DNA of 39,812 nucleotides from Bacilli bacterium (GTDB taxonomy: Bacteria; Bacillota_I; Bacilli_A; RF39; UBA660). The translations under genes and the position numbers were made by a program. The stretch is from contig DAOSVX010000001.1 of NCBI GenBank assembly GCA_035379765.1, forward strand, positions 1 through 39,812, read 5' to 3'. This document shows positions 3,284 to 13,631 of this stretch, piece after piece. How positions within the stretch are numbered: position 1 is the first letter of the stretch; each line of letters begins with the position of its first letter. The notes beneath the pieces were generated by a model, which did no database searches, was not told the DNA's origin, and saw nothing but the letters and a program-made list of their open reading frames with translations.

Positions 3284-5116
3284 TTATTTTACACAATTTC
3301 TTAAAGCATCTAAAATAACCACCATAGCCCAAGTATCTTGTTGACAATATTTTATTAAAGATTCTCTCCTTATTTCTAGTTCTTCTTTAGTTAAATGAGG
3401 ATAATTAGCATATTCAACTATCGCTTCAGTACCATTTTGGACATCTAAAGTTTTATAAGATAAATCACTAAAAACTGGTAAAGTCTTTTTTATTGAGTAA
3501 GATCCACTAAAGCGATAATCATAATAATTTAATCTTTTAGCTTCTTCTTCATCAAAACCTAAAGTCATATATATATCTTTTTTGGTTTTTAAAATATCTA
3601 TTAAATCAAACCCACGATCATATATTTTCATTAGATCTTTTTGATACTTAGGAAATATTTCTCCTAAACGTTTAATGCATTTCTTTTCAAAAGAAACATT
3701 TTGAGCAAATAAAGTACCTTTGCTGCCATCAATTAACTCTACTAATTTTTTAACTAACTCTTCTCTTTCGTCATTAAAACTATGAGCTAGAAAAACAAAG
3801 TTATCTTTTTCTTTATCACATTTACCTGGTTCATTTTCAATATGTAAGCTAAATTCAAATGGTGATTGTTCATAACACTTTTCTCCTTTAAATCTTGGTA
3901 TAGGGCAAGGAAATGTTTCAAAATCCAAATGATATATTGGGTATTTTAAAGATTCAATAACTACTTTTAATTTTTCTTTATTAATATATGGCTTTTTAGT
4001 TATTAAAGCATTTCTTTCTATATGATGATTAGGATTTCTAATCCAGCTTTCGGGTATATCTAGCATATTTATATAACCTTCATTAATTAAATTTAAACCT
4101 TGATGATAATCCCCTTTTTCGTCTTTAAAACCATGTTGATTATCAATATAATTTAAAGATGAATTATATTCTGGTATCATAGAACCACATATTTTCTTAA
4201 AATACTTACATTCTGTTGGTTTCTTATACTCACAATAACAACCTAAATTAACTTCTTTTAAATTATTTTCTTTTAGATAACTTTCTAATAATATTCTATC
4301 TTTATCAATAATTGGTAACATTTCTTTAGTTAATTTAGTCATATCCATAAAAGTAATTATTTCATTACCATTTAAATCTGTTTCATATTCGCTTTTTCCA
4401 TCATAGATATATTCATGATTTAAAACCGCTAGATAATAATTAAAATTAACTAACTTAGCTTCATTATGACTTTCTTTATATTCCCCTTCAATAATATATC
4501 TTTGAACACTTAAATCATAAACATATTTACCAATATCATATCTATCTAATAGTTTATTTCTTTTCTTAGTATATGTTTCTAACTCTTTATCAATAAAAGA
4601 ATAATTAACTTCATCTTTTAGATATAAAATATTATCTTTTTTAACAAACAAAGAATATGGTTCTTTATTAAAAGTACCAACTTCCAGATATTTTTTACTC
4701 GTAGTTGCTTTTACTTCTATAATATTAATGCTTTTTTCCGTTTCATTATAAACATCAACATAACAAAGATATTTAATACCATTTAAACTAAAATCAAAAC
4801 ACTCTTGATTAAAAGTATTAGAAGATGATACCACTTTACCACCAAAGGTCTTTAAAACAGATGCAGCAGCTAATTCTTCTACTTTAGAATAATATGGTAA
4901 CATAGCTTTTAATTGAGTATTTTCTACATCTATTAAATCCTCTTCATCTTCACTATACATCTTAGAAAATATTTCTTTTACTTTTTCTTCCTGTTCTTCT
5001 TTTAAATAATTCTCATACGAAATATCCGCATCTAAACGCTCTTTTTTAACTTCTTCTAATGCTATATATCTTCGGCATCTGGTATAATTAATAAAATTAG
5101 TTTTAGTTATTGCCAT
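3284..5116 (-). CDS. DUF2779-like protein (RecB/Cas4-like Cys-cluster region plus a DFET exonuclease-like motif)
   Basis: 610 aa. It has an N-terminal TKTNFINYTRCRRY, a Cys cluster CYCEYKKPTECKYFKKIC and the segment YHLDFETFPCPIPRF...SPFEFSLH, which I recall as characteristic of DUF2779. This is a family call from memory only. Confidence 0.55.
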   Translation of the reverse strand: MAITKTNFINYTRCRRYIALEEVKKERLDADISYENYLKEEQEEKVKEIFSKMYSEDEEDLIDVENTQLKAMLPYYSKVEELAAASVLKTFGGKVVSSSNTFNQECFDFSLNGIKYLCYVDVYNETEKSINIIEVKATTSKKYLEVGTFNKEPYSLFVKKDNILYLKDEVNYSFIDKELETYTKKRNKLLDRYDIGKYVYDLSVQRYIIEGEYKESHNEAKLVNFNYYLAVLNHEYIYDGKSEYETDLNGNEIITFMDMTKLTKEMLPIIDKDRILLESYLKENNLKEVNLGCYCEYKKPTECKYFKKICGSMIPEYNSSLNYIDNQHGFKDEKGDYHQGLNLINEGYINMLDIPESWIRNPNHHIERNALITKKPYINKEKLKVVIESLKYPIYHLDFETFPCPIPRFKGEKCYEQSPFEFSLHIENEPGKCDKEKDNFVFLAHSFNDEREELVKKLVELIDGSKGTLFAQNVSFEKKCIKRLGEIFPKYQKDLMKIYDRGFDLIDILKTKKDIYMTLGFDEEEAKRLNYYDYRFSGSYSIKKTLPVFSDLSYKTLDVQNGTEAIVEYANYPHLTKEELEIRRESLIKYCQQDTWAMVVILDALRNCVK

Positions 5117-5129
5117 ATAAAACCTCTAT

Positions 5130-6437
5130 CTAAAATGGCATTTTCATATTACCATTTTTCATTTGTTTCATCATTTTTTTCATTTCTTCAAATTGTTTTA
5201 GTAGTCTGTTTATCTCTTCGACACTTCTACCACTACCAGCTGCTATTCTTTTTTTTCTCGTAAAGTTTAAACAGTTAGGATTTTTTCTTTCGTAAGGAGT
5301 CATAGAAAGAATAATAGCTTCAATATGAAGTAATTGTTTAGGATCAACATTAATATTATTTAAGCCCATATTACGAGCTCCAGGTATTAATTTAAGCAAA
5401 TTTTCTAAAGGACCCATTTTTTTAATTTGTTTTAAATTAGTTAGAAAGTCTTCTAGATCATATTTACCTTTACGGATTTTTTTAGCTTGTTCTAAAGCTT
5501 CTTCTTTATCAATAACATCTTCTACTTTTGAAGCAATTGATAAAATATCACCCATACCCAAAATTCTTTCGGCCATTCTATCCGGATGAAATTCTGATAA
5601 GCCATCTAGTTTTTCCGAATCACCAACAAACTTAATTGGTACATTAGTTAAATGTCTTACTGATAGAGCTACACCACCTAAAGTATCACCATCTAATTTA
5701 GTTAAAATAGCTCCCGTTAGTTTTAGTTTTTCATTAAACCCATTTATAACATTTATAGCATCTTGACCCATCATCGCATCAATTACTAAAAGTATTTCAT
5801 TTGGTTTAGTTAATTCATTTATTTTTACTAATTCCGCCATTAGTTTATCATCAATATGCAGTCTTCCTGCTGTATCAATAATAATATAATCTTTATCATT
5901 TCCTTTGGCATAATCTAAAGAAGCTAAAGCTATTTCTTCAGGACTTTTATCCTTTAAAGTAAAAACATCGATATCAATTTCTTTACCAATAGTTTGTAAT
6001 TGATCTATAGCAGCTGGACGATATATATCACAAGCTACTAATAATGGTTTTTTATGATATTTTTTACGTAAATAATTAGCTAATTTACCAGCTGTCGTAG
6101 TTTTGCCAGAGCCTTGAAGACCAGCTAACATAATGATAGTTGGTTTTTTATTAGTTTCTAAAGGAGCATACTCTTTCCCTAGTAAGTCTACTAATTCATC
6201 TTTAACTAATTTCATAAATAGTTCTTCTGGTTTTAAACTTTTACTTACTTCTAAACCTAAAGCTTTTTCTTTAACATTATTAACAAATTCTTTAGCCACT
6301 TGATAATTTACATCAGCTTCTAATAAAGCTATTCTAATTTCTCTAATAGCATCACTTATATTATCTTCAGTTATTCTACCCATGCCTTTAATATTTTTAA
6401 AAGCCTTAGATAGTTTATCTCCCATTGCTTCAAACAT
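5130..6437 (-). CDS. ffh: Signal recognition particle protein Ffh
   Basis: 435 aa with GLQGSGKTTT, DTAGR and TKLDGD GTPase motifs, and a Met-rich C-terminal M domain. Confidence 0.95.
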   Translation of the reverse strand: MFEAMGDKLSKAFKNIKGMGRITEDNISDAIREIRIALLEADVNYQVAKEFVNNVKEKALGLEVSKSLKPEELFMKLVKDELVDLLGKEYAPLETNKKPTIIMLAGLQGSGKTTTAGKLANYLRKKYHKKPLLVACDIYRPAAIDQLQTIGKEIDIDVFTLKDKSPEEIALASLDYAKGNDKDYIIIDTAGRLHIDDKLMAELVKINELTKPNEILLVIDAMMGQDAINVINGFNEKLKLTGAILTKLDGDTLGGVALSVRHLTNVPIKFVGDSEKLDGLSEFHPDRMAERILGMGDILSIASKVEDVIDKEEALEQAKKIRKGKYDLEDFLTNLKQIKKMGPLENLLKLIPGARNMGLNNINVDPKQLLHIEAIILSMTPYERKNPNCLNFTRKKRIAAGSGRSVEEINRLLKQFEEMKKMMKQMKNGNMKMPF

Positions 6438-6447
6438 TATTTATCAC

Positions 6448-6732
6448 CTACAATATTTCATTTATTTTTTCTAATAAGGATTCATCTTTAACAAGGTCAT
6501 TAATCTTATTTTTCTTTTTATATAATTTTAGTTTACTTTCGTAATCTGCCAATTTATCATTAATATTTTTAAGTCTTTTAAAAATGGCATTACGACTTAT
6601 TTGATTATTTAAAGCAATTTCTTGTAAACTTAAATCATTAAAATAGTAATCTTCAAAATCATTTTGTTCTTTAGAAGTTAATAAACTTTTATATAAATCA
6701 TATAAATCAATTAAATATATATTTGTTTTCAT
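6448..6732 (-). CDS. ylxM: YlxM/UPF0122 helix-turn-helix protein of the SRP operon
   Basis: 94 aa. LLTSKEQNDFEDYYFNDLSLQEIA is a sigma-70 region-4-like HTH. It sits in the conserved position between ftsY and ffh. Confidence 0.8.
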   Translation of the reverse strand: MKTNIYLIDLYDLYKSLLTSKEQNDFEDYYFNDLSLQEIALNNQISRNAIFKRLKNINDKLADYESKLKLYKKKNKINDLVKDESLLEKINEIL

Positions 6733-9512: not shown

Positions 9513-9549
9513 AAAGGATATTAAATAAAAATATCCTTTTTGTTTTTTT
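9512..9549. terminator. Bidirectional intrinsic terminator between rnj (+) and the DGR RT gene (-)
   Basis: A perfect 10-bp stem AAAAGGATAT / ATATCCTTTT (9512-9521 / 9531-9540) is followed by a T-run. Confidence 0.6.
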
Positions 9550-10597
9550 AAATTTTTTTGGTTATTATATCTTTTCTATCAATTTTCTTATACATTTTTT
9601 GTTTAAACAAAAAACTATTTGCATGCCCTGCATGAGCTACAAAACTATTCCATTCTAATAGCATTTTATGTTCATTTAATCTTTCTATTGAATTAAGTTT
9701 ATTCCACAATTTTATTTTCTTTTTTATTTGTTTCTTTGACCTAATTTTTAATAATTTATGGGTTTCATATATTATATAACCACAAAAATTAATTCCTAAT
9801 TTGTTTGGGTAATATTTGCTCTTTTTATTTAATTCTACTTTTAATCTTGTTTTTAAAAATTCTTCTATTATCCCCATTATCTTTTTTGCTTCTTCTTTAG
9901 ATTCTAGTAAAATAACAAAATCATCCATATACCTAACATAATATTTTATCTTTTGTTGTTCTTTTATATAATGATCTAAAACATCTAAATATATATTAGC
10001 AAAATACTGACTTGTGTAATTTCCAATTGGTATACCTTTATTTTCATCAGCAAATATAAATTTTTTTGTTAAAACCAATAATTTTTTGTCACTTATCATA
10101 TTTAACATAATATTTAATAAAATAGTTTTATCGATATTATGAAAAAAACCTTTTATATCGCATTTCAATATATAGTATTTATTGTATCTGCGTTTCATTT
10201 GTTGCATATATTTTTGAACTTTTGCAACTGCACTATGGGTTCCTCTATTGTCAATACAAGCAAATGTATCCGATATAAATCTTTGCATAACATAAGGCTT
10301 TATAAATTCATAAATGTACCATTGCTGAACTATTCTGTCCCTTAATGGTAAAGCTTTAATAACCCTTTCTTTCGGTTCATTTATAACAAATGTTTTGTAT
10401 TCTCCCATTTGATATATTCCCTTTTTTAATTGGTTAATTATATTCCATAAATTAGTTTCCAAATCTATACTAAAAATTAACACCTCCTTCTTTTTCGTTT
10501 TATTTTTTATTGACCTTTCGTAAGCTTGTAACATTTTTTCATACGTTAAATTTTTATAAAACAAGTTTTTTATTGTTTTAGACATGAATTTATCCAC
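9548..10597 (-). CDS. DGR-type reverse transcriptase
   Basis: 349 aa. It has the RT motifs LPLRDRIVQ, GIPIGNYTSQYFANIYL (the IGxxxSQ signature that distinguishes DGR RTs from group II intron QGxxxSP) and RYMDDFVIL (YxDD). There is no maturase or endonuclease extension. It overlaps the 3' end of avd by 28 nt. Confidence 0.9.
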   Translation of the reverse strand: MDKFMSKTIKNLFYKNLTYEKMLQAYERSIKNKTKKKEVLIFSIDLETNLWNIINQLKKGIYQMGEYKTFVINEPKERVIKALPLRDRIVQQWYIYEFIKPYVMQRFISDTFACIDNRGTHSAVAKVQKYMQQMKRRYNKYYILKCDIKGFFHNIDKTILLNIMLNMISDKKLLVLTKKFIFADENKGIPIGNYTSQYFANIYLDVLDHYIKEQQKIKYYVRYMDDFVILLESKEEAKKIMGIIEEFLKTRLKVELNKKSKYYPNKLGINFCGYIIYETHKLLKIRSKKQIKKKIKLWNKLNSIERLNEHKMLLEWNSFVAHAGHANSFLFKQKMYKKIDRKDIITKKI

Positions 10598-10926
10598 CCA
10601 CCTAGTAAGTTACATATATTCATTATTTTTTTACTCCATGCCGCATAGTTTTTAATATTAATATACTTCCTTTTTTTTGAAACTCTTATTAAAACTTTAA
10701 GCATTTTTAATGATACATCCAGCTCACTCAGTACTCTTATTCTGCTCTTCGTGTCTCTTGATTTTTGAGCTCTTATTATTAGTTTCATCCCATCATAAGT
10801 GTTATTTTTTATTTGCACACAAATGTTATTCTTTTCTATCTTCGGATACTTAACTAATATACTTTCAGTATAATATATTAACTCTAAATATTGCTTATAT
10901 ATAAGTAAATCTTCCAAATTATACAT
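10570..10926 (-). CDS. avd: Avd-like accessory variability determinant (four-helix-bundle / 23S rRNA IVS protein family)
   Basis: 118 aa, predicted all-helical and basic. Size, the YPKIEKNNICVQIKNN pattern and the position immediately upstream of, and overlapping, the RT all fit Avd. Confidence 0.75.
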   Translation of the reverse strand: MYNLEDLLIYKQYLELIYYTESILVKYPKIEKNNICVQIKNNTYDGMKLIIRAQKSRDTKSRIRVLSELDVSLKMLKVLIRVSKKRKYINIKNYAAWSKKIMNICNLLGGWINSCLKQ

Positions 10927-11287
10927 TAAGTACTTCTTTTAATTCTTTTAATAACTTTAACGCTTTTAAAGGTGTTGTGTTATCTATATCTAAATTTTTT
11001 ATTTTATTTAATAAATTTCTTTTTGCTTGTTCCACATCAATTTTATCTATTATTTCTACAACTAAATTTAAATTTTCAAATATATTCGTATATTTTTCAA
11101 TAGAATTAGTTGGAAACCCACATTTTACAACTTCGTCATTCAGTTTAGTTAATTTTAAGGTGGTTATTTTATTTATATTCTTGGCATCTTCATCCAAAAA
11201 TAAATAAAAATTCCCACATTTAAACAAATAGTATTTACTATTATCTATTTGTTTTAATTCTAAATATTTTTTATATAATTTACCCAT
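10919..11287 (-). CDS. Mini-MutS-like DGR accessory protein (MutS domain I plus the MutS C-terminal helix motif)
   Basis: 122 aa. Residues 5-38, YKKYLELKQIDNSKYYLFKCGNFYLFLDEDAKNI, align with E. coli MutS 14-47, [41 protein letters not shown]...CGFPTNSIEKY aligns with ISLTKRG...AGIPYHAVENY. The C-terminal NLDIDNTTPLKALKLLKELKEVL aligns with the MutS end [23 protein letters not shown]. The RBS AGAGGAG lies upstream, and the gene overlaps avd by 8 nt. Confidence 0.7.
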   Translation of the reverse strand: MGKLYKKYLELKQIDNSKYYLFKCGNFYLFLDEDAKNINKITTLKLTKLNDEVVKCGFPTNSIEKYTNIFENLNLVVEIIDKIDVEQAKRNLLNKIKNLDIDNTTPLKALKLLKELKEVLNV

Positions 11288-11515
11288 TTTTTCTCCTCTT
11301 TTTATTCTTTTTGATAGAAAAAAGGTAGTATTGTATATACTATTCCCTATTTTCCATAAAATTTCATTTTCGCCATTTTGTTACTCATATAATTTTATTA
11401 TTAATGTTTTAGTTCTCTTAAAGAACGGGAACTAAACTTTTACTATAAACATTTCACTATAATATCCTTGAATATTATAACCTGAATGAAGAATTTCTTA
11501 TATATAGTAATCTCA

Positions 11516-11648
11516 CAACACAAGACCGCGCCACGATATGTTGCTGTTCGCGTTCCCGTTCGTATTGTTGAGATTGAACCCACCGGCCCCTACACCGTTG
11601 TTATAGTTGCCTCCACGTATGAACCATGGATTAGTCGCATTGACAAAA
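11516..11648 (-). repeat. DGR template repeat (TR)
   Basis: This non-coding 133-bp copy of 11851-11983 has no indels. On the minus strand it holds 12 AAY codons in the VR reading frame. 15 of the 17 differences from VR are at TR adenines. Confidence 0.9.
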
Positions 11649-11730
11649 AGTTTTTTACAGCTAGTCCCCAGCAATTTAACACATTTGTGTATAAATCTCT
11701 ATAATAAGCACCATCTCTATTCTTTATCTA

Positions 11731-11760
11731 TACGAGCCCCAAAAAAGTGTGGGGCTCGTA
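11731..11760. other. GC-rich 10-bp perfect hairpin between VR and TR
   Basis: TACGAGCCCC-(10 nt)-GGGGCTCGTA. No U-tract follows immediately on either strand, so it is not a canonical intrinsic terminator. Confidence 0.5.
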
Positions 11761-11828
11761 TGTTCTCATACTTTTTTTGTTTTACTACTTTGTTTTCTTC
11801 TTGTTTCTAATTTCTACGTTCAGAGTAA

Positions 11829-11847
11829 TCTTAGGCTTCGCCTAAGA
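11829..11847 (-). promoter_or_regulatory. Hairpin/cruciform element immediately 3' of VR (candidate DGR target-recognition element)
   Basis: On the minus strand, TCTTAGGC-GAA-GCCTAAGA forms an 8-bp stem that includes the target TAG stop codon. It starts 4 nt after VR/TR homology ends and has no counterpart next to TR. Confidence 0.6.
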
Positions 11848-13578
11848 AGTCAACACAAGACCGCGCCACGATATGCTGCTGTTCGCGCGCCCGTGCGTAA
11901 TGTTGAGACTGAACCCACCGTCCCCCACACCGTCGCCATAGTAGCCTCCACGCAGGAACCATGGATTACGCGCAGTGACAAAATTATTCCAGTCTTTATA
12001 CCAGTAATTTGTCTCTCCTAAGGCTTCTCCTAGATTACTTGTATTACTCTGCCAACTTGTGGTTATATATAATTTATAATATTTGCTATTAGGATAATCT
12101 AGTCCGGTGGTATTACTTGTTATACCTGAATCACATCCTGTATATGTTGGATCTCCATATATTCCCTTATACCCACTGTGATATATGTTACATCTACCGG
12201 AATATAAATTAGATGATGCATCTGTATATACTCCCATTTGATATTCCCATGCTCCTCCACTCATATCAAATATGCCATATATATTCCCGGTTGTACTTTG
12301 GGGATATGAGCTTACTCCACTTCCATAAGCTATTTCACAACTGGATGTTGCTGCAGCATTTGCAGCACTTGCTCCACATCCGGTTGTATAGTTACTATTA
12401 TTGTTTATTCTTATCTCATCGTTTATTCCATATTCGGAATAACTTAAATATACTACTGCTCCCCAGTCTACATTCTTACTCATTCTACTCTCTGCACTTA
12501 TTCCATAAATTGAGTCTGTTCCAAATTTTAATGATGTTATAAATTCTGTCGATACATTTTGATTTCTTAATGATGCGACATTTGGTTTTATGGTTGGGCT
12601 TACATCTGTACAGTTAGCTTCACTTGGACTTGTTGCACATGTACTTCCTGCTAACGGTGTTGTTTCAAATTTTCCTACCCAGATTCCATTTAATTCTATT
12701 CCATTATATGTGAAAGCGGGATGAGTTAACTCTGTTCCATTAGTACTTCCTGTACTTTTGGTTGTATAGGCGTTTTCAAATGTTATACTTATACTTTGAG
12801 GACAATTCGCTGTACAAGTTGTATCATCACTATATGTTGCTGCTGTTCCATCTACATTAAATAAGGTATATCTATATCTTGGTATCCATACTAAATATGC
12901 TAAGATATCTGCTTCGGCTACTGTTACTCCATTATTTGTTTCATAGTATGTTCTCGTCTCAGTTCCACTTTCTTTTACTAATACTACATTAGCCCATTGT
13001 TTATTTTCATAGCTATACCAACTACTACTCGTTGGGCTTACTGTTGTTACTGTTCCATCATTTCCTATTGTTACAGCGATCATTCCCGTAGAAATTCTTG
13101 GGTAAGCTCCATTTAAGATACTTTCTTTATACACGCTATAACTTGCTATTAATCCTGAACAGCCATCAAACCCTGATGTTTCTGTTTGCAGTGTGGTATC
13201 TACTTCTACTCCTCCTAATGTACTTCCTGTTACTGAGTTCTTACCATTTGTATACCATATTACATTGGTATCTCCTATTAATACTGAGCCTTTATAACTA
13301 CTACTAAAGCTTTTATCGACATATCCTGCTGCTTCTAGATATTCGATACTATAGCAATAGCCACTTTCTGTACTTCTGGTTAAATCATTATTTAATAAAT
13401 CATCAGCATAAGCTGATTTAGCTGCTTTACCGATATTCTCGGCTTCTATCTCAAAAGCATTAGCTTTAGCATTATCCATCATTTTTAAGACACTTGGGAC
13501 TGCTAGAAGAACAAGAACTGCTAGTATGACTATAACTGCTAATAATTCTACTAATGTAAAACCCTGCTTTTTTTTCAT
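11842..13578 (-). CDS. DGR target protein: prepilin-type N-terminal cleavage/methylation domain plus a C-terminal FGE-sulfatase/C-type-lectin-like variable domain
   Basis: 578 aa. The N-terminus MKKKQG|FTLVELLAVIVILAVLV matches the class III (type IV pilin/pseudopilin) signal G|FTLxE. HPAF...GIWVGKFETT and IFDMSGGAWEY resemble FGE-like domain motifs (compare DMSGNVWEW). The VR lies at the extreme C-terminus. Composition is rich in S/T/G/Y/N, unlike the K/E/I-rich neighbouring proteins. Confidence 0.9.
   Translation of the reverse strand: MKKKQGFTLVELLAVIVILAVLVLLAVPSVLKMMDNAKANAFEIEAENIGKAAKSAYADDLLNNDLTRSTESGYCYSIEYLEAAGYVDKSFSSSYKGSVLIGDTNVIWYTNGKNSVTGSTLGGVEVDTTLQTETSGFDGCSGLIASYSVYKESILNGAYPRISTGMIAVTIGNDGTVTTVSPTSSSWYSYENKQWANVVLVKESGTETRTYYETNNGVTVAEADILAYLVWIPRYRYTLFNVDGTAATYSDDTTCTANCPQSISITFENAYTTKSTGSTNGTELTHPAFTYNGIELNGIWVGKFETTPLAGSTCATSPSEANCTDVSPTIKPNVASLRNQNVSTEFITSLKFGTDSIYGISAESRMSKNVDWGAVVYLSYSEYGINDEIRINNNSNYTTGCGASAANAAATSSCEIAYGSGVSSYPQSTTGNIYGIFDMSGGAWEYQMGVYTDASSNLYSGRCNIYHSGYKGIYGDPTYTGCDSGITSNTTGLDYPNSKYYKLYITTSWQSNTSNLGEALGETNYWYKDWNNFVTARNPWFLRGGYYGDGVGDGGFSLNITHGRANSSISWRGLVLTS
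11851..11983 (-). repeat. DGR variable repeat (VR), covering the last ~44 codons of the target gene
   Basis: See TR. It encodes FVTARNPWFLRGGYYGDGVGDGGFSLNITHGRANSSISWRGLVL, whereas the TR-encoded sequence is FVNATNPWFIRGGNYNNGVGAGGFNLNNTNGNANSNISWRGLVL. Confidence 0.9.
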
Positions 13579-13601: not shown

Positions 13602-13631
13602 ATTATACTTTTTCAATTGCTGGTTTGTCAA
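13602..13631 (-). promoter_or_regulatory. Consensus sigma-A promoter of the DGR target gene
   Basis: On the minus strand, TTGACA (13631-13626), an 18-nt spacer and TATAAT (13607-13602). The RBS AAAGGAGGAG follows, 8 nt before the ATG at 13578. Confidence 0.65.

Follow-up and report, generated by a model that had tools for sequence, protein, structure and literature searches.

What is a pair of near-identical 133-nt repeats doing in the genome of an uncultured Bacilli bacterium, and where do two differences between its copies come from that do not lie at template adenines? The repeats are located on a stretch of 39,812 nucleotides (NCBI GenBank assembly GCA_035379765.1, contig DAOSVX010000001.1, positions 1 to 39,812 of the forward strand), which is called the window in the following. 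An initial annotation, made from the letters of the sequence, had described them as the template repeat (TR) and the variable repeat (VR) of a diversity-generating retroelement (DGR). The analysis supports this description, as all defining parts of a DGR adjoin the repeats and natural alleles change almost solely in VR, and we estimate the probability that the repeats are TR and VR of a chromosomal DGR that was recently active in nature at about 93%.

The repeat search of the region reported a single repeat family, consisting of the two copies listed in Table 1, with a start-to-start offset of 335 nt and an ungapped identity of 87%. A separate comparison gave the same geometry, which had previously been aligned by hand. 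The homology stops abruptly at both sides of TR and VR, and no third copy was found in the whole 634,668-base genome assembly. On the minus strand, which is the coding strand, the computed alignment contains neither indels nor an even spread of mismatches over the four bases: 15 of the 17 differences fall at TR adenines (A>G 8, A>C 5, A>T 2), 2 at TR cytosines and none at T or G. TR consists of 35 A, 38 G, 32 T and 28 C, for which at least 15 out of 17 differences would fall at adenines with a hypergeometric probability of 1.3e-8. VR forms the 3' end of a protein-coding target gene, whereas TR is intergenic, lying outside any gene, and reading on from it in the target frame meets a TGA. In the frame of the 578-residue target, the TR adenines comprise 17 first, 13 second and 5 third codon bases, and 9 of the 12 AAY codons are changed in the window VR (N to T, Y, G, D, S, I, H, R and S). 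The codon table thereby reproduces the counts of the initial annotation.

The strongest evidence for recent activity comes from natural alleles. Alleles of the same species were sought by searching proteins with the C-terminal region of the target as query, which yielded one 90%-identity cluster with four members; besides the window these are L136 (ENA) and L137 and L138 (two JGI metagenomes), and their DNA was compared ungapped with the window. The four proteins are identical over residues 1-529, and their differences are confined to residues 530-569. L138, for which 11,737 nt including the whole DGR were compared, has 24 differences from the window, all at positions 6594-6705 of its locus, corresponding to VR and 2 nt upstream; by chance, 24 differences would all land within 141 of 11,737 nt with a probability of about 1e-46. 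L136 (7,239 nt compared) has 26 differences in the VR region and one more 5 nt from the contig end, and L137 (6,831 nt compared) differs from the window at one junction-proximal base. TR shows no difference between the window, L136 and L138, which are all the contigs containing it. Outside VR, the assemblies diverge by no more than 1 in 25,384 nt, and all open reading frames (ORFs) of the cassette are intact and identical. VR has diversified in otherwise identical contigs of 6.8-11.7 kb. Using the last 150 target residues as a query for further same-species alleles gave matches only in other species, the adenine-free 3' end had no match in a metagenome-wide scan whose records left out near-identical ones, and an exact look-up of the RT protein returned no match.

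Of the 30 sites within the 133-nt repeat at which the four alleles are polymorphic, 27 are TR adenines (35 in total) and 3 are TR cytosines. The allele shared by the window and L137 carries 15 changes at TR adenines and 2 at TR cytosines, the L136 allele 21 and 0, and the L138 allele 14 and 1, with about 48% of the adenines changed per allele. The reverse transcriptase (RT) complex bRT-Avd has been described to misincorporate at 30-52% of adenines (PMC7826257). The adenine spectrum of the independent natural alleles is A>G 27, A>T 15 and A>C 8; in vivo, the base most often misincorporated opposite A is cytosine, giving A>G in the sense strand (PMC12875486). Each of the 12 AAY codons is altered in one allele or more. 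Adenine mutagenesis of this TR gives a repertoire of about 10^18 proteins, and a stop codon is impossible within codons 533-576.

The remaining parts of the element surround the repeats (Table 1). All on the minus strand, the cassette runs from the promoter-like site through the target gene with VR, the hairpin after VR, the GC-rich hairpin, TR and the spacer to the genes for the MutS-like (MSL) protein, the accessory protein Avd and the RT. The translation of the RT contains IGNYTSQ, matching the DGR signature [I/V/L]GxxxSQ, and YMDD, which points to a DGR-type RT. Avd, the accessory gene expected of a DGR, is well above its Pfam cut-off and just below the one of NCBIfam DivGenRetAVD (72.9 bits, cut-off 80). 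The profile search gave no HRDC match in any cassette ORF, leaving a small MutS-like ORF together with avd and without HRDC, as in the Architecture D class of DGRs.

Table 1. Coordinates of the DGR cassette features in the window
Feature	Position	Strand	Description
Promoter-like site upstream of target gene	13602..13631	minus	TTGACA-18-TATAAT, 12/12; consensus scan, pattern match only
Target gene	11842..13578	minus	578 aa; prepilin-type signal MKKKQG/FTLVELL, long middle, C-terminal C-type-lectin/FGE-like domain ending in VR
Stretch upstream of perfect homology	11984..11991	minus	8 nt, VR TGGAATAA vs TR AAAAAACT; two polymorphic sites
VR	11851..11983	minus	133 nt, residues 533-576 of target
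Adenine-free GC-rich VR 3' end, IMH-like	11851..11871	minus	21 nt TCGTGGCGCGGTCTTGTGTTG; identical in TR (11516-11536) and all alleles
Hairpin after VR	11829..11847	minus	8-bp stem TCTTAGGC/GCCTAAGA, loop GAA; DNA fold
GC-rich hairpin between target gene and TR	11731..11760	minus	10-bp, TACGAGCCCC...GGGGCTCGTA; read directly in sequence
TR	11516..11648	minus	133 nt, non-coding, 35 adenines, 12 AAY codons
Structured spacer RNA 3' of TR	11288..11515	minus	228 nt, five helices, T-run after last
MSL accessory gene	10919..11287	minus	122 aa; MutS domain I only; Pfam MutS_I E 3e-11, NCBIfam mutS N-terminus
Avd accessory gene	10570..10926	minus	118 aa; Pfam bAvd E 1.3e-20, 74.4 bits (cut-off 40)
DGR reverse transcriptase	9548..10597	minus	349 aa from GTG, 345 aa from ATG called in L138; RVT_1 E 1.3e-19

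The two cytosine-site differences of the window are a C>G at TR 11634 (index 14 of the repeat, VR 11969) and a C>A at TR 11586 (index 62, VR 11921). They lie in the codons ACT>CGT (T537R) and GCC>GAC (A553D), those singled out by the initial annotation, and both changes are non-synonymous with charged products. The two positions are polymorphic rather than fixed: L136 and L138 retain the templated C at both, and L138 has a cytosine change of its own, a C>G at TR 11567 (index 81, VR 11902) that turns AAC into AAG (N559K). For comparison, related loci were collected from a sample of 200 further genomes of the same order, to which two loci from a related-locus search were added. In the TRs of these relatives both codon positions have C, and 13/13 related TRs with a recovered reading frame encode Ala in the AGxF motif (A553); among the VRs, only that of the window departs from it, with Asp. 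Drift of TR, one of the sources initially suggested, is excluded, because TR is identical in three assemblies and the relatives' TRs keep the cytosines. The low divergence outside VR makes ordinary drift of VR, the other form suggested, very unlikely, with 0.012 non-adenine changes expected over the three alleles and 3 seen (P of 3 or more 2.6e-7). Therefore, the cytosine changes were most probably made during mutagenic retrohoming, through misincorporation or else through an error-prone step of integration or repair. Similar changes occur elsewhere. Non-A-to-N differences are found in 23% of DGRs, with more than one such difference in 24/372 (PMC5758913), and the 13 clean TR/VR pairs of related RTs contain 185 adenine and 5 other differences (2.6%), at least one non-adenine difference being present in 4/13 pairs; the 2/17 of the window is not significantly different from these related pairs (Fisher p = 0.10).

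A second explanation accepts the DGR and takes the window's two cytosine changes to be spontaneous point mutations that arose in VR after homing and were raised by selection on the binding surface. It would account for both changes being non-synonymous and leading to charged residues, and Wu et al. list post-homing selection as a possible source of non-A-to-N differences (PMC5758913). The in vitro cytosine error of bRT-Avd, about 0.3%, also speaks for it, as only 0.25 cytosine changes would be expected over the three alleles, with a probability of 0.002 for 3 or more. However, the background divergence that argues against drift gives an expectation of 0.012 such changes where 3 are seen, the invariant scaffold Ala at A553, kept in every related TR and all other VRs, is an unlikely place for an adaptive change, and L138 has an independent third change, a C>G. 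We consider this explanation unlikely for the origin of the changes, and selection may have helped to keep those made by retrohoming.

If retrohoming is the source, the RT or the retrohoming process might genuinely mutagenise template cytosines as a secondary activity, a suggestion that we regard as tentative and rather doubtful. The observed rates per allele are about 3-4% per C against about 48% per A and 0/210 T/G sites; were the activity real, the rate per C would be about 10 times the noise-limited C error of Bordetella bRT-Avd, and Arg, Asp and Lys could be reached where the adenine code cannot provide them, scaffold positions included. The restriction to cytosines rests on three events and is a lead rather than a finding. 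Two of the three cytosine changes adjoin mutated adenines, which was dropped as a signal; most TR cytosines neighbour adenines.

The cytosine-site differences might also be errors of assembly or consensus calling in a heterogeneous VR population, which appears very improbable. The Logan contigs of the two best-matching runs have a low depth (3-9x) and break at VR: the contigs identical to the window end at 11873 and restart at 11993, leaving only the variable VR part uncovered. This gap fits a mixed population, and the one junction-proximal base that separates L137 from the window could stem from a chimeric path. However, the same two cytosine changes are found in a separate JGI assembly (L137), and consensus errors would not pick non-adenine positions only 3 times in 98 sites, each in a coherent allele. 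That the repeats survive from a DGR now dead, or belong to a simple duplication or a gene-conversion cassette working without reverse transcription, is hardly credible, as the ORFs are intact and VR alone varies, at TR-adenine positions, while the genome holds a single donor copy and a conversion cassette would yield mosaics rather than random A-to-N changes.

The boundaries of the repeats are partly different from those first described. The initial annotation saw an identical 3' end of 24 nt resembling a site for the initiation of mutagenic homing (IMH). In the window pair the last 25 nt are indeed identical, but the adenines 11874 and 11872, just upstream of the adenine-free end, are mutated in L138 and L136, which shortens the invariant end to 21 nt. 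As TR and VR share this end, recipient and donor can be told apart only by the sequence downstream of it. The hairpin after VR starts 3 nt past the VR end, holds the TAG stop of the target gene and is absent after TR, so that the sequence suggests the arrangement known from DGRs, an IMH-like GC-rich boundary with an inverted repeat after VR only. A hairpin of differing sequence is found at the same place in most relatives, with perfect stems of at least 6 bp in 8/14 loci compared with 5.6% of shuffles, and the VR flanks differ from the TR flanks in this respect (Wilcoxon p = 0.011). A motif GAyTAy...TATA follows TR in most clade members (window 11505-11515; also L003, L005, L040, L046 and L047). 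The similar GATTACT/GACTATC is located past the hairpin downstream of VR (window 11820-11829), as if the hairpin had been inserted into a shared flank.

At the 5' side, the limit of homology lies where the initial annotation placed the start of VR, but the polymorphism extends 8 nt upstream, to two sites that read T, T, C, T (11991) and A, T, T, T (11985) across the four alleles. The 8-nt stretch is TGGAATAA, CGGAATTA or TGGAATTA in the VR variants compared with AAAAAACT in TR, and the surrounding DNA is otherwise invariant. The C and T that TR has at the last two positions of this stretch occur in no VR allele, and the A-run of TR upstream of the homology could generate stop codons. Both an identical IMH/IMH* pair and imprecise 5' boundaries are known DGR variants (PMC5758913).

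Several points weigh against a DGR that diversifies VR by retrohoming and makes the cytosine changes on the way. The evidence is limited to four natural alleles, 3 of them independent, and the allele shared by L137 and the window might come from related samples, in which case the cytosine changes are replicated in a second assembly and perhaps not in a second population. The VR coverage gap in the Logan contigs could also stem from low depth (3-7x). The polymorphic sites 11985 and 11991 are not explained by simple copying of the present TR. With the noise-limited error baselines of bRT-Avd (U 0.5%, C 0.3%, G 1.6%; PMC7826257), about 2.6 non-adenine changes are expected over three alleles, making their total unremarkable; that all 3 fall on cytosines is odd (p = 0.023 by composition), and selection on rare spontaneous VR mutations offers another, if less probable, source for them.

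The target protein starts with a prepilin-type signal, supported by matches to Pfam N_methyl (E 5e-8) and NCBIfam TIGR02532 (28 bits, above the cut-off of 16.3). Its C-terminal domain has a weak Pfam FGE-sulfatase match and no match in a sequence search against the PDB. The AlphaFold model, based on 62 homologues, has a pLDDT of 81.8 and a pTM of 0.77, and its best Foldseek matches in the PDB are TaqVP (PDB ID 5vf4, E 1.5e-8) and Mtd (PDB ID 1yu0, E 2e-4), followed by FGE-like proteins. The structure prediction thus suggests a DGR variable protein with a C-type-lectin fold. The genome also encodes a Peptidase_A24 protein next to T2SSE, a PilB-type ATPase (contig C14:2772-4543). A prepilin motif accompanied by a peptidase and an assembly ATPase in the same genome indicates, from sequence features, that the target is a putative type IV pilin or pseudopilin. 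In total, 8 proteins with the N_methyl prepilin motif are found in the 635-kb genome (contigs C5, C44, C54 and others); four of these eight are large (498-590 aa) like the DGR target, and none has a VR.

The spacer 3' of TR is a conserved structured RNA, the counterpart of the BPP-1 'Sp' region. In an alignment of 9 clade members 91% of the cells are paired and 23/30 pairs show a compensatory change, with a covariation of 0.596 compared with 0.287 in shuffles (0/500 reach the observed value) and 0.10-0.18 in slid-partner controls. Rfam RT-14 (RF02921) matches over its full length at 11355-11491 with 32.8 bits (E 0.014), and the related locus L003 scores 41.5 bits; both are under the gathering threshold of 48.1 bits, for which reason we call the spacer RT-14-like. 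Weinberg et al. described RT-14 among their RT-associated motifs; for another of these, RT-10, which is the TR-RT spacer of BPP-1, they proposed a possible primer role. The spacer ends in a hairpin and a T-run directly before the msl gene, and the TR RNA may therefore be a transcript separate from msl-avd-RT.

The cassette is flanked by housekeeping genes, RNase Y and RecA on one side and RNase J and FtsY on the other, which shows that the element is chromosomal and not phage-borne. The host RecA is 80-83% identical to RecA of uncultured metagenome-assembled Bacilli/'Tenericutes' genomes, Candidatus Onthousia among them, and a CPR/Patescibacteria host was rejected on this ground. The runs containing the window sequence are activated-sludge metagenomes. 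Besides the 122-residue mini-MutS of the cassette, the genome has a full-length MutS (855-aa frame, contig C3:1318-3642), and the mini-MutS could therefore compete with host mismatch repair.

A close RT homologue (E about 1e-99 or better, 47-57% identity) is present in 22/200 of the same-order genomes; the one same-genus genome among those sampled is without one. The MSL gene lies between TR and Avd in 9/14 loci, in the same place as in the window in L003, L005, L037, L040, L044, L046, L047 and L051, whereas 5/14 have Avd alone between TR and RT (L041, L042, L050, L053 and L054). Being absent from five loci of one RT clade, MSL is dispensable or easily lost. The presence of MSL does not track the share of non-adenine differences, which is 4/131 with MSL and 3/67 without (L053 left out). 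In L053 (2212-2358 and 2994-3140), 12/31 TR/VR differences are non-adenine, unlike in the other 13 pairs, and this locus may represent a decaying element or an old target. A repeat in L004 was rejected as a TR/VR pair, its differences being spread over all bases. L003, the closest related locus (RT 68% identical), contains an identical stretch of 1,469 nt twice (1-1469 and 3789-5257), comprising the target 3' end, VR and TR, which represents a tandem duplication or, alternatively, an artefact of the assembly.

Among known systems, the element belongs to the MSL-containing DGRs, described as Architecture D by Wu et al. 2018 with the Legionella pneumophila DGR as the studied example (PMC5758913). 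It shares with them avd and a small MutS-like gene beside the RT, the lack of an HRDC gene, a cellular rather than phage-borne location and an A-to-N TR/VR pair with occasional non-A differences. It differs in its host, an uncultured Bacilli lineage with a reduced genome, and in a pilin-like target whose signal is of the prepilin rather than the lipoprotein type; the gene order target-TR-spacer-msl-avd-RT and the optional MSL in its RT clade also set it apart. The BPP-1 DGR (mtd-avd-TR-brt) has in common with the window element the adenine mutagenesis of AAY codons, the GC-rich adenine-free 3' boundary, the inverted repeat only after VR, a structured spacer after TR, Avd, the RT signature and a variable protein with a C-type-lectin fold, Mtd being one of the fold matches. 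In contrast to BPP-1, the window element is chromosomal, its IMH and IMH* are identical with only the downstream hairpin and flank distinguishing VR from TR, its accessory genes follow TR and spacer, the spacer is similar to RT-14 and not to RT-10, and it has the extra MSL gene.

The best structural match, TaqVP from Thermus aquaticus (Foldseek probability 1.0), likewise carries its VR at the C-terminus of a fold of the C-type-lectin/FGE-like type. The sequence identity is 14-15%, and the window protein differs by its prepilin-type N-terminus and an extra N-terminal part of about 300 residues. In Bacteroides, DGRs that diversify type V pilus adhesins have been described (bioRxiv 10.1101/2024.11.15.621889); there too, the target is an adhesive protein associated with a pilus, and the bacterium lives with a host or in a community. 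The pilus type (type V compared with the type IV/Com-like prepilin signal of the window), the phylum and the RT lineage are different.

By analogy to BPP-1, an RNA with TR and the structured spacer would be reverse transcribed by an RT-Avd complex, and the small MutS-domain-I protein may take part in this step. The cDNA synthesis would start at the adenine-free 3' end of TR, with template adenines probably being copied at random and the other bases faithfully. As in BPP-1, the cDNA would then replace VR of the pilin-like target gene, the site possibly being marked by the shared GC-rich end together with the hairpin present only after VR. The expected outcome is a diversified binding surface with a C-type-lectin fold on a protein carrying a prepilin signal, suggesting display on a pilus. 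The window's two non-adenine differences would be allele-specific by-products of this process, arising from misincorporation opposite template C or from error-prone integration or repair.

To a DGR specialist the element will be unsurprising, being a clean and well-documented example of a known mechanism. It provides a natural before/after set, with identical TR and flanks and three independent VR alleles, from which a mutation spectrum in situ was obtained, A>G being more frequent than A>T and A>T more frequent than A>C, with rare non-adenine changes that appear to accompany the process rather than drift. The alleles point to an element active in wastewater and digester populations of a Bacilli lineage with a reduced genome. 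The combination of a pilin-like adhesin and an MSL gene in a host with a full-length MutS would make it a reasonable system for studying the function of MSL.

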